A program made the position numbers and the translations under genes. Below the pieces are notes generated by a model. The model saw nothing but the letters and a program-made list of their open reading frames with translations. It was not told the origin of the DNA and ran no database searches. A DNA stretch of 25,623 bases from a virus (Duplodnaviria > Caudoviricetes): IMG/VR virus record IMGVR_UViG_3300020042_002353, positions 1-25,623 of that record; one strand, 5' to 3'. The number at the start of each line of letters is the position of its first letter. Position 1 is the first letter of the stretch. Positions 7,709 to 25,621 of this stretch are shown in pieces.

Positions 7709-7709
7709 C

Positions 7710-8144
7710 ATGAATATTAATATACTTCCACCAGAACAAGTTTTAACATACTGGCCTACTATTTGCCCATTCTTAGAGGAAGCATTAAGCTATGGACAAA
7801 ATGAATCATCTCTAGTAGACTATATAAAAAAAATTATTAATGAAACAGCGCAATGCTGGGTAGTTACTGATGAAAATAAATTTATTATTGGTGCTGGATT
7901 AACACAATTAATTCATTATGCACAATATAAAACACTTCATATTGTAGCTTTTTCAGGTAGTAATTTTGAAGAACAATCTAAAGTGTTTCCTACTGTGGAA
8001 AACTTTGCACGACAAATGGGATGTAAAGCTATTGAACAATGGGGAAGACCAGGATGGGCAAAACAATTACCCAAATATGTTCCTGGCTTTAAACAAGCAT
8101 ACGTAGTTATGAAAAAAGATTTAGAAGGAACATATAATGAGTAA
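7710..8144 (+). CDS. GNAT-like protein preceding the ejection genes (T7 gp13-like position)
   Basis: QCWVV...IIGAGLTQ...LHIVAFSG...VENFARQMGCKAIEQWGRPGWAK follows a GNAT-like beta/alpha pattern; context supports it. Confidence 0.5.
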   Translation: MNINILPPEQVLTYWPTICPFLEEALSYGQNESSLVDYIKKIINETAQCWVVTDENKFIIGAGLTQLIHYAQYKTLHIVAFSGSNFEEQSKVFPTVENFARQMGCKAIEQWGRPGWAKQLPKYVPGFKQAYVVMKKDLEGTYNE

Positions 8145-8823
8145 ATGGAAATTAGGAAAGATTGTAAAACGTTATGGCGGTGGTGGTGGAGGTGGTACAA
8201 CAACTACTGTCACACAAAATATTCCAGAAGAATTTAGACCAGCATTACGTAGAGCACAAGAGAGAGCAGAAGAAGCATATCTTGGGGGTAAACTTGATAA
8301 CGTAGCAGGTGTATCTAATTTACAAGAAAAAGCTTTTGGTATGGGTGATACCATACAACAAGTTGGACAATCAGGTTTAACTACATTACAACAACAAAAT
8401 GCTAGACTAACTGATATGGCTAATACAGGTGGAGCTAACGAGCTTCAAGCTGCTTTAGATTTAGATGTAGGTATGGGTGCTGCTAAGATAGGTCAAGACT
8501 ATGGTGCATCAGGTACATTAGGTTCTTACAGACAAAATTTAGCATCTGCCTCTGCTGAAGACGCTACTAAAGCTAAGTTTGCTCAACAAGTTATAAGTAA
8601 TAAAGGCGCTGCTGAAGCTGCAATTGGTGCTAATGTTGGCGCTCAAGGGTCAGTAACTTCAGGTACTGCATCTAAGCTATCTGACTTAGGCGGTCAACAA
8701 AGAAACATTCAACAACAAATTGAAGATAAAGATTATCAAGCATTACAACGATACGCTTCCACTGTGTATGGTAATCCTGCACGACAATCAGCAACAACAT
8801 CACAAAGTGGAGGTGGTAAATAA
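8137..8823 (+). CDS. Putative ejection/pilot protein (P22 gp7-like architecture)
   Basis: Basic leader MSKWKLGKIVKRY followed by G7 and TTTTVTQ; Ala/Gly/Gln-rich helical body; ends in QSGGGK. Confidence 0.55.
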   Translation: MSKWKLGKIVKRYGGGGGGGTTTTVTQNIPEEFRPALRRAQERAEEAYLGGKLDNVAGVSNLQEKAFGMGDTIQQVGQSGLTTLQQQNARLTDMANTGGANELQAALDLDVGMGAAKIGQDYGASGTLGSYRQNLASASAEDATKAKFAQQVISNKGAAEAAIGANVGAQGSVTSGTASKLSDLGGQQRNIQQQIEDKDYQALQRYASTVYGNPARQSATTSQSGGGK

Positions 8824-9347
8824 TGGCATATGATCCTTGGGATTGGGCTAATAGTAGCTCAGAAAAAAAGGAAACAGTTATAGGTGCTCCTTTATCTAAT
8901 GTTATTGTTCCTTTACAAGCTAGTAATGAACAAATGCAGCCAGGACAGGTTATACAAGAACAACCTAATAGGGATGTAGAGCAGTTAAGAAGTATGGCTA
9001 TTAACAAAGGTGTTGATAAAGGGGCTAGTTACGTTTCAGATAAATATGCAGCTATGAAAGCTGGTCCTATTGGTACTGGTGGCGCTCCTGTAGTAGAACA
9101 AAGCATTATGGCTTCTTCACCAACAATTGCTGCACCAGCAGGAACTATGGCGGGAATGGGTACAGGTACTGCTGCTGCCGCCGCTACTGAAGCTGCTGTA
9201 ACTGCTCCTCTTGCTACTACTGCTTTAACTCCTGTTGCTGCTGGAGCCGCAGGCGGAGCTGCTGAAGCAAGTATGCTTGCTGGTATGGGACCAGTAGGTT
9301 GGGGTGTAGGCGCATTATTGTTAGCTAAATCAATGAATTGGATTTAA
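8823..9347 (+). CDS. Putative ejection protein with Ala/Gly-rich hydrophobic C-terminus
   Basis: AAGAAGGAAEASMLAGMGPVGWGVGALLLA tail; translationally coupled (TAATG). Confidence 0.5.
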   Translation: MAYDPWDWANSSSEKKETVIGAPLSNVIVPLQASNEQMQPGQVIQEQPNRDVEQLRSMAINKGVDKGASYVSDKYAAMKAGPIGTGGAPVVEQSIMASSPTIAAPAGTMAGMGTGTAAAAATEAAVTAPLATTALTPVAAGAAGGAAEASMLAGMGPVGWGVGALLLAKSMNWI

Positions 9348-9349
9348 AA

Positions 9350-12300
9350 ATGGGACCACTATCTGCTAAACAACACAGAGAGTACTTAAAGTTTTCTGCA
9401 CAAGAAGCTAGAGCATCAGACAAAATGGAACGGGAAGAAGCTCGTAAACAACAACTACATGAAATTAAACTTGTAGAAGCTGCTGGTAAAGCTGGACAAA
9501 CTTTAGGTCATAAAGAAGACATTCACAAATATAAGATGGGTACTTTAGGTGCTCCATTAAAAATTAAAACACCTAACCCACTAGCTGGAGCAGAAATATT
9601 TAAACGTGGTCAACACATGTTACCATACCAAGTAGAAGATGCTGCTAAAGCTAGAAAAGCTGCTAAAGAAAATACAGATACCGTACCCGCTATGTTAACC
9701 CCTGGTGAAGCTGTTATTCCTCAACCTGCTGCACAAAATCCTAAGAATAAACCTATTATTAAACGTATGGTTCAAGAAGGTAGAAAAGCTAACAGACGAG
9801 GATATGCTGATGGTACCCTTGATGTTAACATAGATACTGATGGTATTGAAAATGTTGCAAGAGAACTTGCTCAACAATACCTACGTGATGGTTCTGTTAA
9901 CATTGTTAACTCAGATGTTATTCCTAGTAGAGTACAACAAGCTGCTGGATACATGGATGGTAGCTCTAAAGTTTCTGTAAATGCTTCTGGTAGTAAACAA
10001 AAAAGTAAAGATAGAGATTCATCTAATGAAAGTTCTAATTACTTTGGTAGAATTGGTTATAATAGTTCTCCTCTTTCAGTAGGCATAAGTGGAGGGGGTT
10101 ACAAATATTCAGGTAGTAATTCTGAAAATTCTTTTAAAGGTGGTAAGTCGGGTATAACTGGTTTAGATGCTACTTATAATGTTGATAAAAATACATCTTA
10201 TGCTATTGAATTAAAAAGAGCATTAGATCAAAATGATGCTCAAAAAGAACAAGCTAATAAGCAAGTTGAATTTAAATACAGAAAAGAATTTAATGATGGT
10301 ACTTCTGCAGTGCCTCAACTAATGAACTATAACGAAGGTACTATTCAAGTACCAGTACCATCATTAGCATATGAGCATTCAGATGTTCCTGGATCTTCTT
10401 TTAAAGATGGTACAGAAGAAGTACCTAACTTTAGTAGAGGTAGTTCAGCTAGTTATCATTATCAAGGTGGTACTGAAGACGTACCTAAGTTATCAAATGA
10501 AGAATATAGACAACAATTCTTAGAGCAAGAAGAATTAAGTAGACGATTAGCTAACGAAAATAAATCACCTGAAGCTATTTCTGCAGCAATTCCTAAAAAT
10601 GTTGTAGTAGAAAGTACTAAACTATCTGATAGCATAGAATCTGCAGTTCCTCGTTCTGCTTATCCAACAGATGTAACTGAAAGCATGAAGCTTAAAGATG
10701 TACAAGCAAAGATTAATGGTAGTGTTAGTTCAGAATTTGACATTCCAGAAAGACCTTTTAAAAATTTAGGTATGCCTGAAGATTTACCAATGTTTGTTAA
10801 ACCCCAAGTAGTTGTTCCAGTTAATAATAATTTTCCTGCACTTCATTCTACTGGAGAACAAACTACTGATAGTACATATTTTGTTAATAAGCGTATTCCT
10901 AAACCTCAATTAAAAGGTGAAGGACCTTCTACATATTTTCCTGAAGACATTTCTGTAGTTCCTGAAGTTAAAGAACCAGCTCAAGCTAGTGATGCAGAAA
11001 TGGAAGCAATATTAGTTGCTAATGAAAAAGTTGTTCCTCCATTAAAACCAGAAGATGATGAAACAAGACCTGAGTACTGGATTAAACATTTAAGAGGTTC
11101 TCAAAAAGATGTTGACAAAGCTATGGCTAATAAAGATGATGAGTCTGCTATTAAGTCTTTAAGCGATTTGTTTACATACAAAGGTATTAAAAGTATTTTA
11201 GGTTTAAATGATCAAGAGGTTGCTCGATTAGCAGTAGCTACTGTAGCAGGTCGTGCTATGGGTTATGACACTGCTCGTGCATTATCTTATGGTGGTAGAC
11301 AAGCATTTGAAACATCTTTACGTAGACAGGCTCAAGAGGAAGCTAATAAACGTCAAGATAAACAATTAGCTGCTCAAGCTGAACGTGAAGATATGCGTAC
11401 TGCTATTACATTAGCTGGTCAGGCTAAAACTGAAAAGAGAGCTGCTGCTAAAGAAAAATTAGATGAAAAGAAATTAGAATTACAAAATAGAATACAAAAT
11501 GCTAAAGAGGAAAGAGATCGTCAATATCGTATATTCCAAGATTTAAAAGAAGATAATAAATGGACTCATCAACAATCTAAAGATGCTAGAGCAGAGCAAC
11601 AACATCTTCAAGATAAATTACAAACTTATTTAGCCATGGATGTTAATCCTGCAGTAAGATCAAAAGCTTTAGATTTAATAGCTAAGTCTAAAACTCCTGA
11701 AGATTGGTTAAGTAATATGCGTAATGCTACTACATATCTAGCAGCTAACGTTCAACATTATCCTCCTGGATATGGTCGTAAAGGTGGTAGTGGTAGTGGT
11801 GATGACGATGGTGAAGGTGGTGGTAAAACTAAGTATGCTAAAGAACCAAAGATGATGTTTGTAAATGGTCAACTCATGCCAGTTCAATATCATAAAGGTA
11901 ATTACCAAACTATGGATGGTAGACCAATTCCACCTAATGCTGTTAAAACTATTGAAGCCCATCGATATGAAGAAGATACTGTTGCTAATAAAGTTGAAGC
12001 ATTAGTGCCTCAAGGTGCTAAAGATAAAGATGGAAAACCTTTTAATGTTAAAGGACTAGCTAATAATTCTAATAGAATATTATCAGGTATTCCTGGAGGA
12101 TTAACTATTGATAACAAAGCTGATGTTATGAATTTAGTTATTCCTCAACTTGTAGAAAGCGGTGTTCAAGATCCTAGTACTGTTAGGCAAGTTATTCGTG
12201 GTAACCTTGCTAAAACTACAAGTCAATCTGATAAAGATTTGTGGAAGCCTAAAGGTAAAAGTTTATCTGCAAAATCTATGACTGAATTTACTGGTGCTTT

Positions 12301-12526
12301 AGATACAGTTATTAATAATGCTGCTTCAAAAAGTCAAGTAATAGATGACCAAACTGCGTATGAAGCTTTGAAAAGAAACTATAATGCTATACCAGCAGAT
12401 GTTAGAACTAAGATGGAAAAATCTAATCTTACACAAGAGGGTTATAGTACGTTCCAAGATTGGGCTATAGCAACAACAACAGGAAATCCTAAATGGAAAT
12501 CTTACACTGAACCTAAACCAAAATAA
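9350..12526 (+). CDS. Large internal virion/ejection protein with repeated [YF]xxG[TS] motifs
   Basis: ATG 9350 preferred over TTG 9338. Contains TDTVPAMLTPGEAVIP, several aromatic-x-x-G-T/S motifs, an acidic Pro-rich linker and a long coiled coil. Confidence 0.6.
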   Translation: MGPLSAKQHREYLKFSAQEARASDKMEREEARKQQLHEIKLVEAAGKAGQTLGHKEDIHKYKMGTLGAPLKIKTPNPLAGAEIFKRGQHMLPYQVEDAAKARKAAKENTDTVPAMLTPGEAVIPQPAAQNPKNKPIIKRMVQEGRKANRRGYADGTLDVNIDTDGIENVARELAQQYLRDGSVNIVNSDVIPSRVQQAAGYMDGSSKVSVNASGSKQKSKDRDSSNESSNYFGRIGYNSSPLSVGISGGGYKYSGSNSENSFKGGKSGITGLDATYNVDKNTSYAIELKRALDQNDAQKEQANKQVEFKYRKEFNDGTSAVPQLMNYNEGTIQVPVPSLAYEHSDVPGSSFKDGTEEVPNFSRGSSASYHYQGGTEDVPKLSNEEYRQQFLEQEELSRRLANENKSPEAISAAIPKNVVVESTKLSDSIESAVPRSAYPTDVTESMKLKDVQAKINGSVSSEFDIPERPFKNLGMPEDLPMFVKPQVVVPVNNNFPALHSTGEQTTDSTYFVNKRIPKPQLKGEGPSTYFPEDISVVPEVKEPAQASDAEMEAILVANEKVVPPLKPEDDETRPEYWIKHLRGSQKDVDKAMANKDDESAIKSLSDLFTYKGIKSILGLNDQEVARLAVATVAGRAMGYDTARALSYGGRQAFETSLRRQAQEEANKRQDKQLAAQAEREDMRTAITLAGQAKTEKRAAAKEKLDEKKLELQNRIQNAKEERDRQYRIFQDLKEDNKWTHQQSKDARAEQQHLQDKLQTYLAMDVNPAVRSKALDLIAKSKTPEDWLSNMRNATTYLAANVQHYPPGYGRKGGSGSGDDDGEGGGKTKYAKEPKMMFVNGQLMPVQYHKGNYQTMDGRPIPPNAVKTIEAHRYEEDTVANKVEALVPQGAKDKDGKPFNVKGLANNSNRILSGIPGGLTIDNKADVMNLVIPQLVESGVQDPSTVRQVIRGNLAKTTSQSDKDLWKPKGKSLSAKSMTEFTGALDTVINNAASKSQVIDDQTAYEALKRNYNAIPADVRTKMEKSNLTQEGYSTFQDWAIATTTGNPKWKSYTEPKPK

Positions 12527-12543
12527 ACTGAAAAGGGGTTATT

Positions 12544-15500
12544 ATGAAATCGTTAGATGATTATGTTAATGATGTACTTGCTGATAATGCAGCTATAGCC
12601 CCTCCTTCAGGCTCTGCTTTAACTATTAATAACAAACCAACAAAGAATTCTCCAAAATGGATTGACTCTGATACTGTTAAAGTAAACAATAAAGATTATC
12701 GTATTGAAGGTTATAATGCACCTGAAGTTGCGCATAGATATGATGGTATATTCCTTCCTCCACAAGAGCAAGGGGTATCACCTCAAATACCTAAGATACT
12801 TAATCAAGCAGGGTTTACTGACTTACAAACTACAGGTAAAACAAGTTATGATCGTGGAGTAGCTAAGCTTGTTAATCCTAACACTGGTGAAAATGCAGCT
12901 AATTTTTTATCAAGAACAGGTATAATAGAACCTAATAGATTTACTGATAAAGATTCTGCTGATCAATATTATAACACACAAGCTATTATAAGAGCTTTTC
13001 CTGAAAGAGCTAAACGAGATCCTATATTAGCAGAAGTAGTTAAAGAAAATGAACGTAGAGACAAAGAGTTTGCTGAAGCTGGAAGACGCCAGTATGTCCC
13101 TAAGATAAATGCTTTTAACGAAGAACAATATGCTGCATATAAAAACAGTACAGGTATTAAAGGTATTAATAATGCCAGAGATACTATTAAAAAGATTGAT
13201 GCTATATTAGCTAGTGAAGGTAGACCTGAATTAACACCTGACTTTAATGCAGTAGGTTTTGAGGGTGCTATGTCTTATACAACAGGTGGTGGACAACAAA
13301 TACCTCCTGAAATTAAGGCTAAGTTACTTAAACAAAGAGAAGCAGCACAACAACAGATGTTTACTTCTTCTTATTTACCTGATGTAGTAGGTGGTGTACA
13401 GTTTCGTAGTAATGATAGAACTATAATGAACCAAGCCAATGATCAAATGAGTACTAGTTTTTATAGTGCTCTTAAAGATATGTCTAAGGGTTTTTGGGGT
13501 AACGTAGAAATGGTTGGTGAGAAGACTGGTTGGGATGAACTTAAAGACAATGCTAAAGCACATGTCAATAGTATTAAGATGACTCAAGCAAATTTACCAG
13601 CAACATTATCTTCATTTAGAGATATTAATACTGATGCAGGATGGTGGAATACAGCTAAAGATTCATTAACTTATACAGGTAATTTATTTGCAGGTACATT
13701 ACCTCAAATGACTACTTTAATAGCTTCTGCTTATCTTACTGGTGGTTCTTCTTTAGGTATAGCTTTATCTACAGTACCTGGTTCTTTCTTTTATGCAGGT
13801 CAATTTTATGCTGATCAACCTGATGATAAAAAGAATGCTGCATTAGCTGTTACTGCTGGTGTAGGTTCAGGTGTATTAGATAGGTTAGGTCTTGAATTTT
13901 TATCTGGTAAGTTAGGTTCTGGATTGTTTACTGTTACAGGTAAAGAAGAAGTTATTAATGCTATGATTCAAAACGGTAAAGCAGCAACTAGATTAGAAGC
14001 TGAAAACCTTCTTCAAAATGCTACTAAACAAGAGATATTAGCATTAACAGGTTTTGGAAAAGAATTTGCTACAAAACAATTATTATCTATAGAAGGCGCT
14101 GCTAAAGCAAGTGGTAAAGCATCTATAGCTGGTTTTGGTGAAGGTGGTACTGAGTTATTACAACAAGAACTGCAAATGCTAGGTCAATCAGGTCAATTTA
14201 ATCGTAATTATAAATATGATTTAAGTTATAAAGATCAATTAGAAGATGCCTTTGTTGGTGGTTCTATTATGGGTTTTGGTTTTCATGGAGCAAGAGGCGT
14301 AACTGATATGGCTGGATGGCATTCAGCAGTAGACGCTCAAAGACTTTATGATAAAACTGTTAGTGATTCTCAAGCTTTTCAAGCGGATAACCAAGAAAGA
14401 TTAGCAAATAATAATGGGGGATATGTTGACGTTACTCAATTAGCTAGACAAACTGCTGTTCAACCATCAAATTATGCTGATACTTCTTTAACTAATTTAC
14501 CTACAAATAAGGGATGGTTTGAAGGTGTTAAACAAACAATAGCTAATCCATTATCTTTGTGGAAACAATTAAGTCATACTGCTATACCAAGTATTACCGA
14601 TGATAATGGTAATTTTAAATACAACTTAGCTTATCTTAAATCTATAATGGGTGGTTTTGGTATATTACCAGGAGACTCTGCTTCTGTATTTCAACAAAAG
14701 TTAATGGGTAAATGGTCTGATGGTGGAGCATATGATTTAGCTTCTAGATTAGCTGGAACAATGGGTTTTGGTGTTAACAAACAATCTGTTAACCAAATGG
14801 TTAAAGAAGCATATGATAACTATTGGTCTCAAGGTCTTCAATTACCTGTAAGTACTTATCAAGAACAAGTATTACAAGATTGGAAAAACAATTTGGATAA
14901 AACTAGATTGTCTATGATGCAATCTGCTATTGATGCTGGATTACCATTTAGCCATTTAGCAGATGAAAATGCTTTGTTTCAATCATCTCGTATTGATATC
15001 CCTAAGCTTAATAGTAATAAACCTCTTATTGTAAATGAAATGGTTAATAGTGGAGCAACAAGATCTGAAGCTACTACTGCTGTTAATAATCTTAACAGCC
15101 CTAATAAAGCAAAAGCAAGTGCTGCCGTAGATTATTTATCTCAATATGGTTTCTTTACTAACCCTAATTTACAAAATATATTTCAAAGTAATATTCTTGA
15201 TAGTATTGAGCATATGAAAGAAAGAACTGCACAACAAGTTATGCACGCAACTTATCTTGGAAAAGATGGTAATATCCTTGGTAAGCTTTTATTAGCAGCT
15301 AAAGATGCAGGTGAGTTTAATGATTCTAATGGTGTGTTTGATGAGAAAGCTTTTAAAGCTGCAACAACAGAAGTAAAAGCATGGTATGATATTACTAATA
15401 ATGACTACAACAATATTGAAAGTCCTTTCTTAGCTTCTACCCAAAACTATTTAGTTACTGCAACATTGTTAGCTTCATTATCTAAAGCAGCTATTTCTTC

Positions 15501-16845
15501 TCAAGCTGAAGCTACATTAGCAACATTAGGTACACCTGCTAAACTATTAGGAAAACAATTATCTACATACGCCAGTGAGTATGCTACTGAATATGCTACT
15601 GATATGGCTAAGGGAGCCTCATTTGCAGCATCATTGTTTGGTATTAAACATTTGAGAGAAGTTCCTGATGTAAATTTACAATCAAGATTAGATAAATTAA
15701 ATGACAAATTAAATGCACCTAATGCTTCTCAAGAGTCTCTTGATGAAACACAAAAAGAAATTGATGAGTTACATGAGCGTTATTTTAATAGAAAAACATT
15801 TAGCAGATTAGGTTTTGCTGAAGTTGGTTTTGATGCATCTAATAAATATGATTTTGGTGGTACAGACACTAACAAACTACGTAAGATTATGGGTGTGTTT
15901 GTCTCTGCTATTTCTTTAAGAGCACAGACAGATGCTAACCGCATGGCAGTACTTAGTATTGCTGGTGATATTATGATGACTCAGCTTAATACTCTTAGCA
16001 ATGTTGATCCTGCTATTCGTGATGTTGCATTTGCTACTGGTCAAGGTTTAACTGTAGAACAACAACAAGCTTTAATTCAATTACAACAATATGGTTTAAA
16101 TGTACCTCATATGCTTAATGCAATAGATGTTATGGGAAGCCAATTTAATATGTCTCCTTTTGAAGGTAACTTTTTAAATACAGAACAAAACGCCCCTATG
16201 TACGAAGCTATACAAGATAATATTTACACTGCATTAATTAACTTTGTTGATTCTCGTGTTGTTAATCCACAACCATTTAACACACCAAAGATTTATAATG
16301 ATCCACGGTTTAAAATGATTACTACTATGCAAAAGTTTATGGGTACAGCTACAGCAGTTCTATTACCTAGATTATATAAGCAACACATACTTAATGGTAG
16401 TGTTGGTATGCGTTATGATGCTTTTGCTACTATGGGTATGACCTTAATTATGAGTGCTTTTGTTAATATATTTAAAGATCAAATCTCTTATGGAGAAGAT
16501 AGTCCTTATGTAAAAAGTAGAGCAAAGAAAGCTCAACGCATTTTAAATTCATCAGGCTTACTTGGTCAAGCAGAAAAGATAACAGAAGCTATATCACCTA
16601 CTATTGAATTTAGTAGTGCTAAATTTACAGAAAATCCTGCGGGATGGGCTGTAGATAAAGCTAAAGGTATATCACCTGTTGTATCATGGGTAGCTAAACC
16701 CATTGAAGGGGCATATGATATATCAGAAGGTAAAGATCTAAAGGGCGCTAAAAAGATAATGAGGGCTATGCCTGTTATCGGTAGCTTTCCTGCAGCAAGT
16801 AATTATACAGCAGAAGAATTTGTAAATGCTTTTAAGGGAAAATAA
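12544..16845 (+). CDS. Large internal virion/ejection protein with N-terminal SNase (thermonuclease)-like domain
   Basis: 1433 aa. WIDSDTVKV...YRIEGYNAPE...SYDRGVAKL resembles SNase motifs; central Gly/Ala-rich hydrophobic segments; helical C-terminus; RBS AAGGGG. Confidence 0.6.
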   Translation: MKSLDDYVNDVLADNAAIAPPSGSALTINNKPTKNSPKWIDSDTVKVNNKDYRIEGYNAPEVAHRYDGIFLPPQEQGVSPQIPKILNQAGFTDLQTTGKTSYDRGVAKLVNPNTGENAANFLSRTGIIEPNRFTDKDSADQYYNTQAIIRAFPERAKRDPILAEVVKENERRDKEFAEAGRRQYVPKINAFNEEQYAAYKNSTGIKGINNARDTIKKIDAILASEGRPELTPDFNAVGFEGAMSYTTGGGQQIPPEIKAKLLKQREAAQQQMFTSSYLPDVVGGVQFRSNDRTIMNQANDQMSTSFYSALKDMSKGFWGNVEMVGEKTGWDELKDNAKAHVNSIKMTQANLPATLSSFRDINTDAGWWNTAKDSLTYTGNLFAGTLPQMTTLIASAYLTGGSSLGIALSTVPGSFFYAGQFYADQPDDKKNAALAVTAGVGSGVLDRLGLEFLSGKLGSGLFTVTGKEEVINAMIQNGKAATRLEAENLLQNATKQEILALTGFGKEFATKQLLSIEGAAKASGKASIAGFGEGGTELLQQELQMLGQSGQFNRNYKYDLSYKDQLEDAFVGGSIMGFGFHGARGVTDMAGWHSAVDAQRLYDKTVSDSQAFQADNQERLANNNGGYVDVTQLARQTAVQPSNYADTSLTNLPTNKGWFEGVKQTIANPLSLWKQLSHTAIPSITDDNGNFKYNLAYLKSIMGGFGILPGDSASVFQQKLMGKWSDGGAYDLASRLAGTMGFGVNKQSVNQMVKEAYDNYWSQGLQLPVSTYQEQVLQDWKNNLDKTRLSMMQSAIDAGLPFSHLADENALFQSSRIDIPKLNSNKPLIVNEMVNSGATRSEATTAVNNLNSPNKAKASAAVDYLSQYGFFTNPNLQNIFQSNILDSIEHMKERTAQQVMHATYLGKDGNILGKLLLAAKDAGEFNDSNGVFDEKAFKAATTEVKAWYDITNNDYNNIESPFLASTQNYLVTATLLASLSKAAISSQAEATLATLGTPAKLLGKQLSTYASEYATEYATDMAKGASFAASLFGIKHLREVPDVNLQSRLDKLNDKLNAPNASQESLDETQKEIDELHERYFNRKTFSRLGFAEVGFDASNKYDFGGTDTNKLRKIMGVFVSAISLRAQTDANRMAVLSIAGDIMMTQLNTLSNVDPAIRDVAFATGQGLTVEQQQALIQLQQYGLNVPHMLNAIDVMGSQFNMSPFEGNFLNTEQNAPMYEAIQDNIYTALINFVDSRVVNPQPFNTPKIYNDPRFKMITTMQKFMGTATAVLLPRLYKQHILNGSVGMRYDAFATMGMTLIMSAFVNIFKDQISYGEDSPYVKSRAKKAQRILNSSGLLGQAEKITEAISPTIEFSSAKFTENPAGWAVDKAKGISPVVSWVAKPIEGAYDISEGKDLKGAKKIMRAMPVIGSFPAASNYTAEEFVNAFKGK

Positions 16846-19800
16846 ATGGCAATTAATGTAAATGTAAATACGCAAGGCAGAGCACCATTAAGTGCAGAGC
16901 AATTGCAAGCATTCTCTAACCAAGCTTTTGGTACTGGTGCTGCTCCTCAGGTAGAAATACCTGGGACAGAAGCAGTTAAACAAGCTATGGATGTATATAA
17001 TCCTCAACCTATTCCCGTAGTACCTCTACCAGTTGGAAGTATTGCTGGACCAGTAAATGTAAACAGGTTATCTGCTCAATCTACTCCTGAAGATTTAGCT
17101 CAGGCTACTCAATCATCTTTTGCTGGTCGAGAAAGATTAGGCTTAGTAGAAGATGAACAAGGTATGCCTCAGTTTGATCCTCAGACTGGTGAGTATATAA
17201 CTCAACCTATTACTATGGTTGATTATGGTCAACAACAAGAAGCTGACTTATCTACTAGACCTAATATGGCTCCTGCTTTAATGACTGAAGATCCAGTAGA
17301 AGCAGGTCAAGCTATTCTTAGAGCAAGAGCAGAAGTATCTTCAGCAGAGTCTATGCCAGCTGGTACATCTCAATTCATGGGTATGGATGATAGTACTATT
17401 AAACAATGGGCTGATAGTGCAGCACCTGCATTAAGCATGGTGTCAGATGCTACTGCTGCTGATTTGTTTAGTCCTGAAGCTGTTATTAGAAGTACTGCTG
17501 AAGGGTACTATGGTGTTCCTGCTGGTCTAGAGATTATGAATACTAACAATATTCCTTTAGAATATGCTAGACCAATATCTACAGTGTTAGGTATTGCACA
17601 TGCACGAGCTACTGAGCAAACACGATTGTTTAGAAATGGTATTAAAACAGATCCATTTGAAGATGTTGCTGAAGTAAGAGATAAGAACGGTAATCTTATG
17701 GATGCCCAACCAAAAACTAATTTAGTTAATTCTACTATTGCTTCAATGCACAATGCTCTATCTAACTTAGGTATGGATATACCTGCCCAAGCAGTAAGAC
17801 AATTAGCAGAAGCTAAAGTTGAAGCAGAAATTGCTCAACATCGTCACCTGCCTATGTTAGATAAAGATGATAACATTGTGTATGGTTCTTCTAAAGAAAT
17901 GAAAGATTTAGCAGCTGAATTAAGCTATATGTCTGCTGCATTAGCTGGTGATGAACGTAGACCTTTGCCTTCTAAAGTACCACAGATATCTGGATCTAAT
18001 TTTATTAAGCCTGGTTCACAAGGTACAAAGAATTCTTTAACTATAGAAGGTGCTAAACAACCTGTAGCAGAAACAGTTAAAGATATATTTGGTTCTATTG
18101 GTGAAATCTTTTTACCTAAAGCTATGTTGTCTACAAGTATGCAGATAGAAGATATTAAAAGAAATATGGTAGATGGTCCAGAAGGATTTTATTCTTCAAG
18201 CCCATTTGCTAAACGTCATAAAGTATCTTTATCAGACTACAATAAACTTAAACAAAGAGTTAAACCACCTAGTGATTATGATAATAATAATCCAGTATCT
18301 AGAGCTAAGTTTGTTGAGCTACAAAATCAACATGCAAAAACTACTATAGGTAATGCTATTCAGTTTATGGAATATGATTTAGCTAATGCTCAAAAGATTA
18401 AAGGTGTTGTGTATACTGGTTACTCTCATTCAATGGCTAACCAACGATTCTTTAGAACTAATGCTGGAACTGATATACTAGCGTCTAAAAATGCTACTCG
18501 TGAGATGCTTAACTTTGGTATCCAAGGTTTAACTTACGCTAATCATTTCTTTGATCCTGTAAAAATTAAAAACTTACAAGACAAAGCAATGGGTATATTT
18601 AGCAAGTCAGGTAAAGCTCGTAACAAAGCGTTAATGGCATTAGCTCCTGATGAAAGAACTGCTCTTGGTCTTATGGAGTGTGCAGTAGTTAATTACTATA
18701 GCTATAGTGGTGATCCATCTGTACACAACAAAGATATTGTTAAACAACCTGAAATACAATTAATTAGAATGTATACACCTGAGATTGGTAAACATTTAGG
18801 TATGTTAGGTAAAGAATATAATGATTGGTTATCAGGTAATGTAGCTGAAGGTTCAAACATTATTAATATACTTGCTAATATGCCTAGAGGTGAAGCTCAA
18901 TCACATCAAAATCTTTATGATGACTTTGCTCAATTAGGTATGGCAGCAATGGATCCAGCAATGGCTAATCGTTTTGTTAAACTTAGTGCTTTAAATTATG
19001 ATGATGGAAATCAGAATGGTATCTTTATTCAATCTTTGTATGCAGGTAAACCAACAGTTGCAATTAGATTAGGTTCTTATAACCCTAACTTATCTGATAT
19101 GCGTGGATATGCGTTAAGTATTATTGGTGATAACTTATCTAATATAATTGTTGATAACAAAGATAAGCTTGATGGCTGGAAAAATTTCTTTAGTAATGCA
19201 GTCAATGAGAAGTTAGCAACTGATTTGTTTAAAGCACCTTTAATGCAGAACTCTTATGGTAAAGATTCTGGAATGTTCTTTGATCATGTATTATCTTTCT
19301 TAGAAGGTTCTCAAGATTATAATAGCGTATTTGCTGAATATGTATTACCTAACTATAATAGTTCAACAGAAGCAGCTCAAGATTTAGCTAACGCATTAGA
19401 TGCAACTTTAAGAAAAGTAATTGACCCAAGCTTTACTCGTATGCTTAAAAAGGTTGGTCGTATGTTTGCTGTTATTAACTCAATACCTATTTTAAAAGGT
19501 ATTACTGGTGATGACACTGTGTATTCTTCTGTTGATTTAGGTTTTATTCCTGATCAATTCAGAGATGTAGAAGGCACGGGTATGACTCCTGAAGGACAAC
19601 CATATACTACTGTAGATAGAGGTATTGAAACAAATACTTACCTAGCTCCTGAAGGTATTGTTGAAGTACAAGCTGCAAGAAGGATGTACAATGCTGCTGC
19701 TGGTAAACCTAATCAATCATTCTATAACAAAGCTAAAAATAAATTTGATTTGTTTGAAAATGCTCTTGGCTCTGCATTGTCTAGATTGTTAGGTGTTATG

Positions 19801-20460
19801 CCTATTCAATCTACTGATGCTGACTTGCTTAAGCTAATGATGTTAGATTTAAATGCGGATAGAAAAATACCTTTACCAGTAGCTACTGTTCATGATTCAT
19901 TAATAACAACAATGGATACAATGCATCTCTATCGTAATACTTATAATAACGTAGCAATTCCTCAGGCAATACCTGAGATTAAAAAGTTTGCTAAACAATT
20001 ACAAGATGCTTATATCAAAGCTAAAGATGAGGTGTTTAAAAGAACAGCTGGTGCATCAGACGTAGGTATTGGTACTAAAGGAGACTTTCCTGCATTAGGC
20101 GCTTTCTTTGAAGACTTAAATAAAAAGACTAATAATAGTCCAGAGTATGAAGCATATATTAAAAACAGATCAAAAGACCCAATCAAAAGTTGGGAAGAGC
20201 TTAAAGCAAAGAACAATCAATTATTAGATAAAGCTAAGAAAGCAGGTTGGATTGATGGTATACCTAATCTAACAGTATCTGGTTCACAATTCAGAGACTT
20301 ATTTAATATGATTGAATCTTACCAACAATTAGGCGGTGCAGAAAATATGTTTAAGATTTTTGCAAATGAATTTGAAGGAAAAGTAGATCAAGGTTTTAAA
20401 GCATTACGTACAAATGGTAATGTAATAAAACATGGTATTGCTCAGATGACTCACGCATAG
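16846..20460 (+). CDS. Divergent single-subunit (T7/N4-type) RNA polymerase, putative virion-packaged RNAP
   Basis: Motif A YDDGNQNG (D720), motif B KAPLMQNSYG (K796-x7-Y804G805), MPIQSTDA, motif C VATVHDSL (D1017), all in the correct order; last gene of the ejection operon. Confidence 0.8.
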   Translation: MAINVNVNTQGRAPLSAEQLQAFSNQAFGTGAAPQVEIPGTEAVKQAMDVYNPQPIPVVPLPVGSIAGPVNVNRLSAQSTPEDLAQATQSSFAGRERLGLVEDEQGMPQFDPQTGEYITQPITMVDYGQQQEADLSTRPNMAPALMTEDPVEAGQAILRARAEVSSAESMPAGTSQFMGMDDSTIKQWADSAAPALSMVSDATAADLFSPEAVIRSTAEGYYGVPAGLEIMNTNNIPLEYARPISTVLGIAHARATEQTRLFRNGIKTDPFEDVAEVRDKNGNLMDAQPKTNLVNSTIASMHNALSNLGMDIPAQAVRQLAEAKVEAEIAQHRHLPMLDKDDNIVYGSSKEMKDLAAELSYMSAALAGDERRPLPSKVPQISGSNFIKPGSQGTKNSLTIEGAKQPVAETVKDIFGSIGEIFLPKAMLSTSMQIEDIKRNMVDGPEGFYSSSPFAKRHKVSLSDYNKLKQRVKPPSDYDNNNPVSRAKFVELQNQHAKTTIGNAIQFMEYDLANAQKIKGVVYTGYSHSMANQRFFRTNAGTDILASKNATREMLNFGIQGLTYANHFFDPVKIKNLQDKAMGIFSKSGKARNKALMALAPDERTALGLMECAVVNYYSYSGDPSVHNKDIVKQPEIQLIRMYTPEIGKHLGMLGKEYNDWLSGNVAEGSNIINILANMPRGEAQSHQNLYDDFAQLGMAAMDPAMANRFVKLSALNYDDGNQNGIFIQSLYAGKPTVAIRLGSYNPNLSDMRGYALSIIGDNLSNIIVDNKDKLDGWKNFFSNAVNEKLATDLFKAPLMQNSYGKDSGMFFDHVLSFLEGSQDYNSVFAEYVLPNYNSSTEAAQDLANALDATLRKVIDPSFTRMLKKVGRMFAVINSIPILKGITGDDTVYSSVDLGFIPDQFRDVEGTGMTPEGQPYTTVDRGIETNTYLAPEGIVEVQAARRMYNAAAGKPNQSFYNKAKNKFDLFENALGSALSRLLGVMPIQSTDADLLKLMMLDLNADRKIPLPVATVHDSLITTMDTMHLYRNTYNNVAIPQAIPEIKKFAKQLQDAYIKAKDEVFKRTAGASDVGIGTKGDFPALGAFFEDLNKKTNNSPEYEAYIKNRSKDPIKSWEELKAKNNQLLDKAKKAGWIDGIPNLTVSGSQFRDLFNMIESYQQLGGAENMFKIFANEFEGKVDQGFKALRTNGNVIKHGIAQMTHA

Positions 20461-20461
20461 C

Positions 20462-20509
20462 AAAATAAAAAGCCCCTCAAGGATAATTCCTTGAAGGGCT
20501 ATTTTTTTT
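20462..20509. terminator. Bidirectional intrinsic terminator
   Basis: Hairpin 20471-20500 AGCCC-C-TCAAGGA-TAAT-TCCTTGA-A-GGGCT, flanked by an A-tract on the left and T8 on the right, between convergent genes. Confidence 0.9.
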
Positions 20510-20762
20510 AAATCAGTCTTTTAATTTCTTGACGAACACTATCTGCATTTGTATCAGCCAAAGATAAAGCTTCATCTGGAGAGTAACCTTTTGTAAGGTA
20601 TCCTTCATAATTATCTTTGTGCATCTTTCGGATAGCAGCTTCATTAATATCTGGAGTGCCAGCTAGTTTAGGGTCTAACCCTAGATTTGTACATACATCC
20701 ATGTCAGATGTTTCTCTATCACCTCTTAAAGCAAAGATGTTATAGTTTTGATATTGTTTCAT
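20508..20762 (-). CDS. Hypothetical protein, 84 aa
   Basis: ATGA overlap with the Dps-like gene; stop abuts the terminator. Confidence 0.75.
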   Translation of the reverse strand: MKQYQNYNIFALRGDRETSDMDVCTNLGLDPKLAGTPDINEAAIRKMHKDNYEGYLTKGYSPDEALSLADTNADSVRQEIKRLI

Positions 20763-21223
20763 TTAAAACTCTTTCCAATAGTTGCTTTTACTTTCCAATG
20801 TAATTTACCTAAGTCTCTAAGGTAGTCACCAATATAAGTATTCAAACCACCATAACATGTTTTATCAGCTACTTCAAATAATGATTGAGCATTTTGAATT
20901 AGTATTTCAAAGTCATTACATAATTCAGTAAACATAGTCTTACTAGACTCACCTAGTTTGTTACACTCAAGAATCTCTGTTGTATCTAAAATAGCTTTAA
21001 GAGAAGGTAATGCTGGCTTATCTAACTGACGTAATTGTTCACCTAAGCTATCATGTTGCGCCCAAAGGAAATCATAAATCTCATTTAATAATTCATGGTC
21101 TTGCGCAAAGGTTGGACCTTCAACATTGAAGTGGTATCCATGTGACTTATAGTATACAACAAAATTATCTGCAAAAAGGTTACGAAGAGGTAGTACTACA
21201 ATAGAACTATTACCCTTGTGCAT
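20759..21223 (-). CDS. dps: Dps/ferritin-like protein
   Basis: KSHGYHFNVEGPTFAQDHELLNEIY...HDSLGEQLRQL...KLHWKV matches the Dps signature; start reassigned to ATG 21223 with GGAGG RBS. Confidence 0.8.
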   Translation of the reverse strand: MHKGNSSIVVLPLRNLFADNFVVYYKSHGYHFNVEGPTFAQDHELLNEIYDFLWAQHDSLGEQLRQLDKPALPSLKAILDTTEILECNKLGESSKTMFTELCNDFEILIQNAQSLFEVADKTCYGGLNTYIGDYLRDLGKLHWKVKATIGKSFK

Positions 21224-21455
21224 TAGCTTCCTCCCAATCATATGTATGTGTATAATCATCTACAAAGTCTAGATGGCATCCTGATGGGGGAAAGTAACCC
21301 ATGCCTCGTAGGAATCTTTCAAACTGTTCTATCACCTCAGTAATGTGAGAATGAGCAGACATTTCCATACGAGTAATTAGCTTAGGATTACTGTGATTGC
21401 ATTCAAAGATAATGCTATCTTCACACATATCTTGAATATCGTATTCGTTAATCAT
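21210..21455 (-). CDS. Hypothetical protein, 81 aa
   Basis: RBS AGGGGA; overlaps both neighbours; contains EVIEQFERFLRGMGY. Confidence 0.75.
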   Translation of the reverse strand: MINEYDIQDMCEDSIIFECNHSNPKLITRMEMSAHSHITEVIEQFERFLRGMGYFPPSGCHLDFVDDYTHTYDWEEANAQG

Positions 21456-21789
21456 TTAATTCCCCTAATAATTCTGAAAGTGGTTTTGACTTTCGTGTAC
21501 TGTTTTTTAAATCTAATTGTTTTCTTGCTTCAATATAAGCATCAACATTAGTATCCATGAATTCTTGTAATGCTACTAATTCACTAATAATTAAAGATAA
21601 CTTTTTAGCTTTCTCAACATAATCTTTTTCTTTATAAATACTAAAGTCTAATGTAACATTCCTATTACAATCAGAGATAGTAACATTAGTATCCATAGAC
21701 CAATCACAGATATCACAACTAACTTCAATAGCTGCTAATCCATGTTTACTGTTAAGGAATTTTCTTGAGTTATATTTTTTAGATTTCAT
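21448..21789 (-). CDS. Hypothetical protein, 113 aa
   Basis: Start reassigned to ATG 21789 (AGGA RBS), because the longer start at 21825 lies inside tRNA-Arg. Confidence 0.75.
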   Translation of the reverse strand: MKSKKYNSRKFLNSKHGLAAIEVSCDICDWSMDTNVTISDCNRNVTLDFSIYKEKDYVEKAKKLSLIISELVALQEFMDTNVDAYIEARKQLDLKNSTRKSKPLSELLGELND

Positions 21790-21799
21790 ATGTGTCCTA

Positions 21800-21874
21800 T
21801 GGTGGGTCATGCATGAATCGAACATGCACTCGTGACTTAGAAGATCACTGTTCTGTCCATTGAACTAATGACCC
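21800..21874 (-). tRNA. tRNA-Arg(UCU)
   Basis: GGGTCAT acceptor stem, anticodon arm GTGAT-CTTCTAA-GTCAC, T arm GCATG-TTCGATT-CATGC, encoded CCA. Confidence 0.92.
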
Positions 21875-21882
21875 TTGTTGTT

Positions 21883-21957
21883 TGGTTGCGGAAAGTGGAT
21901 TCGCACCACCGACCTCTGGATTATGAGTCCAGCGCTCTCCTACTGAGCTATTCCGCT
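21883..21957 (-). tRNA. tRNA-Met(CAU), possibly initiator-type
   Basis: Anticodon arm CTGGA-CTCATAA-TCCAG, A1:A72 mismatch, T loop TGCGAAT, encoded CCA. Confidence 0.88.
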
Positions 21958-21964
21958 ATATTAG

Positions 21965-22038
21965 ATGCGACAATTGGATTCGAACCAATGACCTAGCGAT
22001 TATCAACCCGCTTGCTCTTCCACCTGAGCTATGTCGCA
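21965..22038 (-). tRNA. Atypical tRNA-Ile(GAU) with one extra base in the anticodon arm and no encoded CCA
   Basis: TGCGACA/TGTCGCA acceptor, GCTC/GAGC D stem, 18-nt anticodon arm AGCGG-GTTGATAA-TCGCT, T arm ATTGG-TTCGAAT-CCAAT; followed by CTA. Confidence 0.75.
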
Positions 22039-22041
22039 TTG

Positions 22042-22060
22042 TTCCTATTAGGGGACAGCT
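22042..22060 (-). promoter_or_regulatory. Putative phage-RNAP promoter, copy 2 (AGCTGTCCCCTAATAGGAA)
   Basis: Overlaps the thioredoxin stop codon and lies immediately upstream of the tRNA cluster. Confidence 0.7.
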
Positions 22061-22317
22061 GTTCCTGTAATAAAAGTATCTAGTTCAGGTAGAGTAATAG
22101 ACCCGCTAATCTTTCGAATCATATTATCTTTTTCATCAGCTAAAACAAATGTAGGTACAGTCTTAACACCATATCTATCTCTAAGCTCTGGGTTATCCAT
22201 AGCGTTAACATTAGTTAGCACTACACCATAATCATAATGAAAGTCTATATCTTTAATACGACTATTCATTTGTCTGCATGGTACACATGTATCTGTATAA
22301 AATTTATATAAGTTCAA
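22048..22317 (-). CDS. Thioredoxin
   Basis: KFYTDTCVPCRQM (CxxC) and YGVKTVPTFVL (cis-Pro motif); ATGA-coupled to nrdJ. Confidence 0.9.
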   Translation of the reverse strand: MNLYKFYTDTCVPCRQMNSRIKDIDFHYDYGVVLTNVNAMDNPELRDRYGVKTVPTFVLADEKDNMIRKISGSITLPELDTFITGTAVP

Positions 22318-24191
22318 ATCTCACATCCTCCAGCTGCACATGCTAATGTTTGAGCACCCTCAACATTATCACGGTCTTCAATAAAGTTTTCCCAATCAAT
22401 AGATGGGAGCGTATCTTTTAAGCGATGATAAACTGACAAGTCAATATCCTCATATGGAGCCTGACGATAAGTACCACCATCATCAGGTAAGAAACTAATA
22501 CCAGTACACTCATCAAAGTGTTCATATACCCATGCACCTACATCCATCCATTCATGTTCTTTAACAGAGATAGTGACAGATGGTTTGTGTTCGCACCAAT
22601 AACGCTGATACATTAACCAGATATTTAAGTGATCAATAGCGGTTAAGTCTTTGCGGGTAAACCCTGGTGAACGTTGTGGGAAACTGAACACAGATGTTTG
22701 ATCAGGTTTCATTACGCAATCTTCATGAGGTACACCTTGCTCAATTAAGAACTGAGTTAAAGGATCCTTCTTATCCTGACGAATACGTCTAATGTAATAT
22801 GGAGCATGTCCTGCATGAATACCACTACTTGTTTGTGTTAATTGAGATACAGTGCCTTCAGGCTTAACACAAGTAATAGCTGCTGATTCAGAAATGCCTA
22901 AGATTTCAGCCCATTCTTGGTTAGTATCACGAGCTACGTCACGTAGGGTAGATAACACTTCTTCTAGATTCATATTACCTTGACCACGTAATAGTTGATT
23001 ATCTAAAATACCAGTCATAGACACACCTAACAAACGTTCTGACTCAGTATTAGTACGCCAGATATCACGTAGGTAAGGGAAGTAAGTTAGAGTTGACTGC
23101 ATGGTACCCATGATAGTAGCAATTCTTACTTTGTGTTTGAGTGATTCCAAAGTATCTTCGGGAGATACAACAACGGTAGATAGATTACAGAATTGGTAGG
23201 GCTTAAGGATAATTTCTGAACAAGGGTTTGTTCCATAGTCTGTGGTACTATCACGACGACCCCATTTAGCTGCTTGTTTTTGTGATGCTTCACGATTAAA
23301 GATTCCTCGTTCACCTGAGTGACTGTTATAAATGTCTAACCATTCCTTCATAAACTCGCCTACAGAAGGTTTCCTGTTGTATACTGCTGAGTTGTTAGCT
23401 AAAGCACGTTCACCATGTTGTTCCCACCATGTACCTGTCTTAGCAGTAGCATGGTCATAGTCTCCTAAGTCACCTAAGCTAATCATAGCACTACGGCGAA
23501 CACCACCTACGACAACTACCTCACCAATCTTACACATAATATCATGGCATTCAATAGGCTTAAGCTGACGTCCTTGAGACGCCATAAACTTATTAACTGT
23601 ATAACTAAACAAATCAATCAATGGACCAGGACCAGAGGCACGACCACCAAAGGTCTTTAATGGAGCACCTGCTGGACGTACTAATGATATATCCCATTGA
23701 GGAATAATACCTTTGTATAACATATCAACAAGGATACGATAAGCATCACACCAACCTTCTTTACTGTCTTGTACTTTAATAGTAAAATCAGCAGCATTTA
23801 CAAGGGTAGGTACTAAGGGTAACTGACCCGTATATTGTTGTTCAGACGAGAAGCCTACTCCAGTACCACATAATAGGATGTACATGGCTTCATCAAAACA
23901 ACGAGGATTATCGATAGGTAAATAAGAACAATTATATGCGGCTACGTTAGTTCGGCGAAGAGCTTCACCAGCTGTCATAATAGAACGCATTGAAGGTAGT
24001 GTAGACAAACTATTAATTTCATTACGTAAGATTTCCCAGATACTGTCATCTGGTTTTATTTTATTCTTTAATTCTCTCTGAAAGAAGGTTACCCAACGAT
24101 CAGAAGTTTCATTCCAATTTTCCCTACGTTTCTTTTCAGGTAAGTAACGAGCATAACGGGATTTAGCGATAAGTTGTTGATAAGAGTTCAT
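22314..24191 (-). CDS. nrdJ: Class II adenosylcobalamin-dependent ribonucleotide reductase (monomeric RTPR type)
   Basis: YNCSY, GVRRSAMISL, GTNPCSEI, FCNL, TCVKPEGTVSQL and C-terminal ACAAGGCEI; no small-subunit gene adjacent. Confidence 0.93.
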   Translation of the reverse strand: MNSYQQLIAKSRYARYLPEKKRRENWNETSDRWVTFFQRELKNKIKPDDSIWEILRNEINSLSTLPSMRSIMTAGEALRRTNVAAYNCSYLPIDNPRCFDEAMYILLCGTGVGFSSEQQYTGQLPLVPTLVNAADFTIKVQDSKEGWCDAYRILVDMLYKGIIPQWDISLVRPAGAPLKTFGGRASGPGPLIDLFSYTVNKFMASQGRQLKPIECHDIMCKIGEVVVVGGVRRSAMISLGDLGDYDHATAKTGTWWEQHGERALANNSAVYNRKPSVGEFMKEWLDIYNSHSGERGIFNREASQKQAAKWGRRDSTTDYGTNPCSEIILKPYQFCNLSTVVVSPEDTLESLKHKVRIATIMGTMQSTLTYFPYLRDIWRTNTESERLLGVSMTGILDNQLLRGQGNMNLEEVLSTLRDVARDTNQEWAEILGISESAAITCVKPEGTVSQLTQTSSGIHAGHAPYYIRRIRQDKKDPLTQFLIEQGVPHEDCVMKPDQTSVFSFPQRSPGFTRKDLTAIDHLNIWLMYQRYWCEHKPSVTISVKEHEWMDVGAWVYEHFDECTGISFLPDDGGTYRQAPYEDIDLSVYHRLKDTLPSIDWENFIEDRDNVEGAQTLACAAGGCEI

Positions 24192-24212
24192 GAATTCCTT
24201 TTGTTTTATTCT

Positions 24213-24231
24213 TCGGTATTAGGGGACAACT
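24213..24231 (-). promoter_or_regulatory. Putative phage-RNAP promoter, copy 3 (AGTTGTCCCCTAATACCGA)
   Basis: In the short gap between the RNAP stop and the nrdJ RBS (AAGGA). Confidence 0.65.
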
Positions 24232-25621
24232 AGCAGAAAAAGTATTTAGATTCATAGACTTGTTTTAAATCTAATGTACCTTCTTCTGGAGATGGAAACG
24301 TAAAAGTATCTTTATTAAGCATCAATGTATCCATAAGATTATTAAAGAAGTCTGGCATATCATATTGAGCTACAAAGGTCATCTTAGTTACTTCTTGTAA
24401 GAAATCCACTTCACTGGCATGAGTACTAAAGCTGTCATGCACAGCACCAAAGTTACCATTAAAGATAGAAATAACGTTAGCCATATGAGCAGCATCGTAA
24501 CTATGAACGAGGTTAGGACTGATACCAGAAGCAAAAGAACGTCTACAAGGAACCTTTTCACCAGTCTCTTTATTGAGTACATCAACTTTAATAACATGTC
24601 TAATCCTTCCTTTAGGGTTTCCAGCAATACCTCTAATAGTACCTCTATGTTTTCGTTCATGCTGAAGAAATGCTTTATACACTACAGGGAATCCTGAAGG
24701 TGTATGCCATGATAACTGATTACGATTACAGTTAAGCTCATGTTCAGCAATCTTTTGTAAAAACTTAGTTGTTTTTAATGGACCAGAACATACAGCATTA
24801 ATAGCCTTAATAAGGTTACCTGCTAAATCTCCACATTCTTTTTCTGTAATACCATACTTAACAGTAAAGCCTTCTACATGACAGTCATCATACATATTTT
24901 TAGCAATACGTTGTTTACCTGCTGAATATGCACGAGTCATAGAGCCTCGTTTAGCAATACCCTTACGGATATCCTTCATAGGCATATTTTTTTCTTTAAA
25001 GTAGTCAGGCATAATATTAATAAGTTCTTTAGCCACAGCTACATAAAAGTCTTTTTGTATAGGTGTAGGTACTAATGATACTAATGTAGCTGCTTGTGTA
25101 TCTCTAGACATAGCTGCCAGATGCTGCCATCCATTATTACTACCATCAATAGGTATAGGAAAGCCAGACATGTGTTTCTTACCTTTACTTTTTGCTTGAA
25201 TGAAGTCTTTAATTTCAAGACAACAAGCTAATAAGCTATAAGGTTTTTCAGCTGATGTATCTATAGTATAAAACTTAGCAATGCTAGCTATTTTAGTTAG
25301 GTTATTATCTACCCATATAGCTCTGTCTTCAAGAGTCATTTTGTCAAGAGAGATAGTGTCTAACCCTTCTCCTTTTAAATAACTTTTATAGTCAGTAGTA
25401 AAGTAATGTGGTAATTTGTTAATATTAAATGATTCATTGAAACATCCAGCGGTATGTACCTTAAGCCAGAAGTAACCACGATCGTCCATCTCTTTTTTAT
25501 TCTGAAATAAAAAGAGACTACGGGCTAAGTCACTACCCTGAAACTCTAAGAAGGATTCAGCATAGTATACTCGACCACGATAGTCACAGGATACTTCTTG
25601 ATAGAAAGATCTATCACCAAT
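24230..25621 (-). CDS. T7-family single-subunit DNA-directed RNA polymerase, 5'-truncated by the window edge
   Basis: Frame is open to the window end. Manual extension gives ...SCDYRGRVYYAESFLEFQGSDLARSL (DxxGR motif), then PIDGSNNGWQH (A), KRGSMTRAYS (B), SPNLVHSYDA and AVHDSFST (C). Confidence 0.95.
   Translation of the reverse strand: MGDRSFYQEVSCDYRGRVYYAESFLEFQGSDLARSLFLFQNKKEMDDRGYFWLKVHTAGCFNESFNINKLPHYFTTDYKSYLKGEGLDTISLDKMTLEDRAIWVDNNLTKIASIAKFYTIDTSAEKPYSLLACCLEIKDFIQAKSKGKKHMSGFPIPIDGSNNGWQHLAAMSRDTQAATLVSLVPTPIQKDFYVAVAKELINIMPDYFKEKNMPMKDIRKGIAKRGSMTRAYSAGKQRIAKNMYDDCHVEGFTVKYGITEKECGDLAGNLIKAINAVCSGPLKTTKFLQKIAEHELNCNRNQLSWHTPSGFPVVYKAFLQHERKHRGTIRGIAGNPKGRIRHVIKVDVLNKETGEKVPCRRSFASGISPNLVHSYDAAHMANVISIFNGNFGAVHDSFSTHASEVDFLQEVTKMTFVAQYDMPDFFNNLMDTLMLNKDTFTFPSPEEGTLDLKQVYESKYFFC

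Follow-up and report, generated by a model that had tools for sequence, protein, structure and literature searches.

Two dissimilar single-subunit RNA polymerases on convergent arms of a tailed-phage genome: a compact, likely virion-borne enzyme and a T7-like enzyme

We analysed a window of 25,623 nt (positions 1 to 25,623 of the Caudoviricetes record IMGVR_UViG_3300020042_002353) in which two dissimilar single-subunit RNA polymerases (RNAPs) are encoded on opposed arms. Plus-strand tail, lysis and virion genes extend to position 20460 and end with a divergent enzyme of 1204 aa, and minus-strand genes, headed by a T7-like enzyme, run from the right end to 20508. The window is a fragment of the virus record, and the open reading frame (ORF) of the minus-strand polymerase is 5'-open at the contig end. 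Our reading, to which we give a probability of roughly two in three, is that a compact virion polymerase would serve entry and the early genes, and that a 733-aa T7-like enzyme would then transcribe the middle and late genes on both arms. Autographiviridae typically have one single-subunit RNAP and co-oriented genes, and N4-like phages use a giant virion RNAP (vRNAP) plus a two-subunit RNAPII, with host RNAP for late genes. Within the tailed phages that have single-subunit polymerases, injection of such an enzyme is a hallmark of the N4-like phages, in which it is a giant protein.

An earlier, sequence-only reading of this DNA had proposed that the plus-strand ORF encodes a divergent RNAP among virion genes, and had allowed that the protein might not be a polymerase at all. 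The 1204-aa protein had no match in Pfam, PHROG or PDB sequences, nor in cultured phages by tblastn; profiles built from it gave nothing significant in sequence searches against Pfam, PHROGs, PDB and cultured phages, and no cultured phage was found with two distant homologs as queries. An AlphaFold (AF2) model of residues 200–1204 had a predicted local distance difference test score (pLDDT) of 87.8 and a predicted template modelling score of 0.85; the N-terminal ~190 residues are rich in Pro, Gln and Ala. Among the matches listed by Foldseek against the PDB, all were single-subunit RNAPs (T7 or mitochondrial). VIA structure comparison gave Z 25.2 with T7 RNAP (534 residues aligned, root-mean-square deviation 4.9) and Z 19.3 with the N4 mini-vRNAP (698 aligned over the whole model, root-mean-square deviation 7.5). 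The active-site residues are R534 (DxxGR), D720 (motif A), K796 and Y804 (motif B) and D1017 (motif C), under the usual motif names, with the corresponding residues read from the T7 and N4 records.

A profile search returned 224 representatives of this family at 50% clustering. The motif A, B and C residues were kept in 30 homologs and in 43 more read from loci. In statistics drawn from the best 150 of the 224 representatives, 117 of which are at least 1000 aa long, R534, D720 and D1017 were invariant in 117/117, Y804 was kept in 116/117 and Lys or Arg at position 796 in 115/117. Lengths in the family range from 1034 to 1660 aa (median 1286), and no giant vRNAP form occurred among the best 150 matches, longer fused forms not having been searched for separately. 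Four of the 38 distant members scanned matched the PHROG 'virion RNA polymerase' (E values to 2e-16), and one matched only the T7-like family. By its modelled fold and conserved active site, the ORF is a T7/N4-type single-subunit RNAP, in line with the original proposal.

Judged by the analogy with N4, from its position and from its loss of cysteine, this polymerase is likely packaged in the virion and ejected. It contains a single cysteine and the four ORFs directly 5' of it contain none; in the divergent family 24 cysteines occur in 151,627 aa and 100/117 homologs are without any. The T7-like partner has 9–16 cysteines per full-length protein, and 10 in the 463 aa of the window fragment. N4 gp50–52 have no cysteine each, and the available text of one study reports cysteine suppression across Schitoviridae ejection operons (PMC11445570). 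The four cysteine-free ORFs had no Pfam or PHROG match and likely encode ejection proteins, on the grounds of position and composition. For the largest of them (1433 aa; 12544–16845, plus strand), a single-sequence fold was uninformative (pLDDT 35.7), and its ESM Atlas neighbours were unnamed; one lead (0.89) pointed to a cluster with 48% SNase domains.

On the opposite arm, the minus-strand ORF matched Pfam RNA_pol PF00940 with an E value of 3e-56. It had been described beforehand as a conventional T7-family RNAP with the DxxGR motif in frame and no visible split. The second part of this description stood, as DYRGR is in frame with motifs A–C, and the suggestion to establish whether the upstream part is one ORF was answered by near relatives (L004 and L055, ~90% DNA identity), in which one 733-aa ORF, following the primase/helicase, encodes the entire enzyme. 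'Conventional' holds less well: although T7-like by PF00940, the enzyme is ~150 aa shorter than the 883-aa T7 RNAP and only ~23–27% identical to the T7-family enzymes listed. Its profile gave E 2.7e-43 to T7 compared with 4e-8 to N4 gp16 and 2e-4 to gp15, and its best cultured match was phage CRP-7 (33% identity). Separately, group I introns (Rfam RF00028) split the gene just past motif A in two loci (L029 15508–15725, L096 13338–13575 (−)), and it is split in the same way in L033 and L074. In L018 an in-frame TAG lies within the DxxGR motif (~19324–19326, minus strand), either a sequencing error or a defective copy.

We then related the two enzymes to a 16-bp motif with a T7-like core at its end, which occurs three times in the window and seven times in the relative G001 (0.02 and 0.08 by chance, from 100 Markov controls) and is present in 10/13 long relatives. 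All 38 plus-strand sites in the long relatives lie on the early/middle arm. Of the minus-strand sites, 21/25 precede the presumed small terminase gene TerS (eight) or TerL (six) or lie in the late arm (seven), and the other four point back to the genome end; the TerS gene had no PHROG match and its label is presumptive. With bases numbered by analogy with T7, positions −9 and −8 are C in 22/22 sites where the specificity loop of the T7-like enzyme has His and Arg/Asn, and −10 is G in 52/52 sites where it has Gln and Met/Thr. This covariation was repeated in a partly overlapping set of loci, and an alignment by eye places the second varying loop residue at T7 Q758, a specificity position described in the available text of PMC11880802. 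The covariation amounts to a single change on the tree, with which the tree of the divergent enzyme is also compatible.

Close relatives (L168, L189, L191 and L215) exchange the divergent polymerase and its 5' neighbour as a module, the clades standing at background identity. L168 and L167 have T7-like enzymes that are 98% identical and share two identical promoter sites, while identity between their divergent polymerases is 24%, compared with 25% for the shuffled baseline; the pairs L189/L177 and L191/L204 (94% each) show the same pattern. Because the promoter stays with the 733-aa enzyme when the divergent polymerase is exchanged, the motif most likely belongs to that enzyme and, on sequence evidence, is its predicted promoter for the middle and late genes of both arms. 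The suggestion that a second RNAP serves middle and late genes is thus strengthened, as one promoter class precedes both and appears to track the T7-like enzyme. Two side observations concern such sites. The three tRNA genes (21800–22038, minus strand) stand directly behind a promoter-like site, and in G001 a 126-aa gene (11845–12225, minus strand), homologous to the CRP-7 gene beside TerL, lies reversed inside the early arm and carries its own leftward phage promoter in 8/10 genomes.

The sequence-only reading had also called for a survey of how often the two polymerases occur together. We fetched 111 loci with the divergent protein, located its ORF in 99, and found the T7-like gene on the opposite strand in 49/49 of those with at least 7 kb downstream and in 52/53 at 5 kb. 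With the T7-like protein we fetched 80 loci; of the 39 that had 7 kb downstream, 35 carried the divergent polymerase by the first profile and all 39 by a broader one. The collections overlap and their loci are redundant and related, so these counts are not independent trials. Four loci thought to lack the divergent gene were rejected as exceptions, since they carry a more distant clade of the same family.

Nine of the relatives, 94–100% complete, are 58–64 kb long. The sole cultured relative found was Roseobacter phage CRP-7 (MK613349), with identities of 57% for TerL, 53% for the portal, 47% for the primase and 33% for the RNAP. Its gp33, a 1235-aa protein annotated as hypothetical, is homologous to the divergent polymerase by a weak pairwise match near motif C (E 8e-7), by position and by motifs; the available text of the CRP-7 paper names only ORF30 as a polymerase (PMC6918029). 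There were no N4-like phages among the best 25 TerL matches. Among cellular genomes, the sole match was the 2.7-kb contig L245, which gives no evidence of a host. The best-matching sequencing run was a freshwater metagenome with near-identical pieces, and most runs hold only small shares. The lineage is neither Schitoviridae nor Autographiviridae and shares core genes and the two-arm layout with the CRP-7-type phage group. It had been suggested that the lineage might be poorly described; a cultured member, CRP-7, has been described, although the accessible part of its paper mentions one polymerase only and gp33 is unannotated. In the literature covered, with supplements and most subscription journals outside its scope, we found no description of this compact polymerase or of the two-enzyme scheme. 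We propose only tentatively, at somewhat less than even odds, a family-level lineage of ~60-kb aquatic podoviruses in which all transcription would be carried out by two one-chain enzymes of the phage, the injected one on an exchangeable ejection module, with host RNAP dispensable throughout; such a lineage would form a bridge from the T7 scheme to that of N4.

In the mechanism that we favour, the particle would eject the cysteine-free proteins together with the compact polymerase, which would transcribe the left end and draw the DNA in. In G001 the end presumed to enter first is ~19 kb away from the T7-like gene, which has two promoters of its own upstream; the gene would thus first be reached by read-through of the injected (or host) enzyme and then amplify its own expression from these promoters. 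The T7-like enzyme would transcribe replication genes rightwards and virion genes leftwards, both ending at a shared terminator, and this lake phage may barely depend on the host polymerase.

The presumed left end is marked by a strand-specific, almost adenine-free tract of 77–700 nt with a conserved short motif 5' of it. The strongest such tract lies right after TerL in 12/13 relatives (marginal in G012, at the contig end) and ahead of gp01 in CRP-7. We dropped the idea that it marks an injected polymerase, since phiKMV, PhiM1 and PP16, which have no such polymerase, show an equal tract at the left terminal repeat, unlike T7 and N4, and we read it solely as a left-end marker. Sigma-70 sites of at least 10/12, scored by the E. 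coli consensus, from which the promoters of the host may differ, were present in the first 1.8 kb of 4/4 host-dependent control phages, 3/13 relatives and not in N4. An Rfam search of the G001 early region found nothing. As side observations, L114 has two long imperfect hairpins with a common 3' motif before early genes (7900–7965 and 8190–8255, z −4.7 each), without an Rfam match, which presumably resemble RNase III sites. Another repeated motif, made up of two parts, lies between early genes (L114 8580–8645 and 8980–9040); found in five to six genomes and without significant folding, it is a candidate early promoter or RNA element. Arrays of a 12-bp tandem repeat in the early/middle arm (G011 ~50960–52020, G013 ~26190–26320) are possibly origins.

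These left-end data bear on the reading that comes closest to our own, namely that the divergent enzyme is ejected and active mainly as a motor for the first few kb, with host RNAP making most early mRNA from promoters that depart from the consensus and the T7-like enzyme doing the middle and late work. A motor role has been proposed for the DEV vRNAP (available text of PMC11445570), we found no dedicated early promoter, and a sigma-70-like site is present in 3/13 left ends. However, strong consensus sites occur in all of the host-dependent controls and are absent from 10/13 left ends here, and we regard this reading as unlikely.

Besides the relatedness of the loci and the choice of the E. 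coli consensus, several observations count against the two-enzyme scheme as a whole. Three of the 13 left ends do carry a sigma-70-like site. We could identify no promoter for the divergent polymerase, and 14 aligned presumed left ends showed no conserved hairpin of the N4 type. No clear transmembrane segment was seen in the five cluster proteins. The 16-bp pattern is absent from G011–G013 and CRP-7, and both polymerase trees group the CCCC-promoter phages (support 1.0 vs 0.38), so that this test alone does not discriminate between the enzymes. The first basic position of motif B (792) is Thr in the window protein vs Lys or Arg in 91/117 homologs. The family profile gave no significant match to single T7 or N4 sequences by hhalign or hmmsearch, and because of this we leave the ancestry of the divergent polymerase between N4 and T7 unassigned; structure scores favour T7 rather than N4, whereas aligned coverage favours N4.

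The Thr at position 792, together with the extreme divergence of the protein and its place as last gene of an ejection-type cluster, could be taken to mean that it derives from a polymerase but has lost catalysis and acts in ejection or DNA binding. We consider this improbable, as both metal-binding Asp residues and the DxxGR Arg are invariant in every one of the 117 homologs even though some of these are no more alike than shuffled sequence. Slightly less probable still is a non-virion late polymerase that itself reads the 16-bp promoter. Its place on the late arm and the presence of the promoter ahead of late operons would fit, but the promoter is unchanged when the gene is replaced by a homolog at background identity, and both promoter variants are found with the swapped clade of divergent polymerase; moreover, the gene sits at the far end of the operon that it would switch on, and its product is cysteine-depleted. 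A chimeric assembly of two phages, which the metagenomic origin of the fragment and the lack of a contig spanning the stretch among those listed for the best run might suggest, is refuted because the same convergent pair is carried by relatives in independent contigs, in complete genomes and in cultured CRP-7.

The features of the window are listed in Table 1. The 512-aa protein at the start of the plus-strand operon is likely the tail nozzle. Between the arms, the bidirectional terminator noted at the outset is upheld as a prediction: T-runs accompany the hairpin on both strands, and its folding energy is −21.1 kcal/mol (z −4.8, equalled by 0/200 shuffles). A pattern scan for terminators reports it on the minus strand only, and a comparable hairpin is present in 4/4 module-swapped loci inspected. 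A metatranscriptome contig of one relative spans 12093–20483 and ends inside the hairpin, a weak hint from a single study; such contigs give neither strand nor expression level.

Table 1. Features of the 25,623-nt window, with A-poor tracts of relatives
Feature	Position	Strand	Basis
T7-type promoter-like site, before the tail/ejection operon closed by the divergent polymerase	4864..4879	+	
Virion structural protein (512 aa), tail-related protein (419 aa) and 144-aa ORF, operon start	4907..8144	+	phrog_3287, phrog_2189, phrog_7642
Four cysteine-free ORFs (228, 174, 1062, 1433 aa), directly 5' of the divergent RNAP	8137..16845	+	cysteine counts
Divergent single-subunit RNAP, 1204 aa, 1 Cys	16846..20460	+	fold, conserved motifs
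Predicted bidirectional intrinsic terminator between the arms	20471..20500	both	hairpin with T-runs on each strand
Four small ORFs closing the replication arm, including a ferritin/Dps-like protein (20759–21259)	20508..21825	−	ORF calls, Pfam/PHROG scans
Three tRNA genes (Arg-TCT, Met-CAT, one with irregular anticodon loop)	21800..22038	−	
Promoter-like site, before the three tRNA genes and the four final replication-arm ORFs	22045..22060	−	
Ribonucleotide reductase (625 aa, B12-type insertion domain) and thioredoxin	22048..24191	−	Pfam, PHROG
Promoter-like site, overlapping the stop codon of the T7-like RNAP, ahead of ribonucleotide reductase	24216..24231	−	
T7-like RNAP, C-terminal 463 aa	24230..25621	−	Pfam RNA_pol PF00940
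A-poor tract examples	G001 7591–7822; G004 12192–12852; CRP-7 57384–58083		

If the two-enzyme reading is correct, this widespread family of polymerases of one-third the size, which Pfam and PHROGs miss, would demonstrate that ejection of the catalytic core does not require the large flanking domains of N4, and it bears on the relation between the N4 and T7 schemes. According to its available text, an N4-mining study removed vRNAP hits under 2,500 aa (PMC10654107), a filter by which a family of this length range would be discarded. The proposal for the divergent polymerase is directly testable in cultured CRP-7, and the 733-aa enzyme with its predicted 16-bp promoter is a candidate orthogonal expression system.

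Compared with known systems, the layout resembles that of N4 in its convergent arms, in the virion-type polymerase (gp50 in N4) that closes the opposed late arm as part of a cysteine-free cluster, in the long C-terminal extension past motif C and the alignment of the whole model to the mini-vRNAP, and in the apparent lack of a strong sigma-70 site at the left end (10/13 relatives here). It differs in that the polymerase stands alone at 1204 aa, whereas N4 gp50 has 3500 aa with large N- and C-terminal domains; the accessible texts describe large flanking domains in the N4 vRNAP (PMC13434306) and Schitoviridae reference vRNAPs of 2,842–3,820 aa (PMC10654107). Unlike in Schitoviridae, the second polymerase is an unsplit 733-aa ORF nearer T7 than N4 gp15/gp16, and phage promoters precede the late genes, which in N4 use the host polymerase (available text of PMC4496689). 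The genome is ~60 kb rather than 70 kb, and no N4-type hairpin promoter was found in 14 left ends. The T7-like RNAP with a T7-type promoter whose variable bases follow the specificity loop, the T7-like primase/helicase, the DNA polymerase and a gp2.5-type single-stranded DNA-binding protein recall T7, and the A-poor left end is shared with phiKMV, PhiM1 and PP16 of the Autographiviridae. In contrast to that family, there are a second polymerase and two opposed arms, and T7 differs further in its RNAP (733 aa and ~25% identity here), in an unrelated-looking terminase, whose best cultured match is CRP-7, and in the apparently few host-type early promoters of the present lineage. CRP-7 has the same convergent layout, the gp33 homolog and the A-poor tract; it is marine, its RNAP has 819 aa, and it lacks the 16-bp promoter seen in the freshwater clade. 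The claim that the phage fits neither scheme thus held for the defining features of Schitoviridae and Autographiviridae and not for the convergent layout with a terminal virion polymerase, which is N4's own. Taken together, the comparison depicts a phage that would be N4-like at entry and T7-like afterwards, yet lacks defining features of both families.

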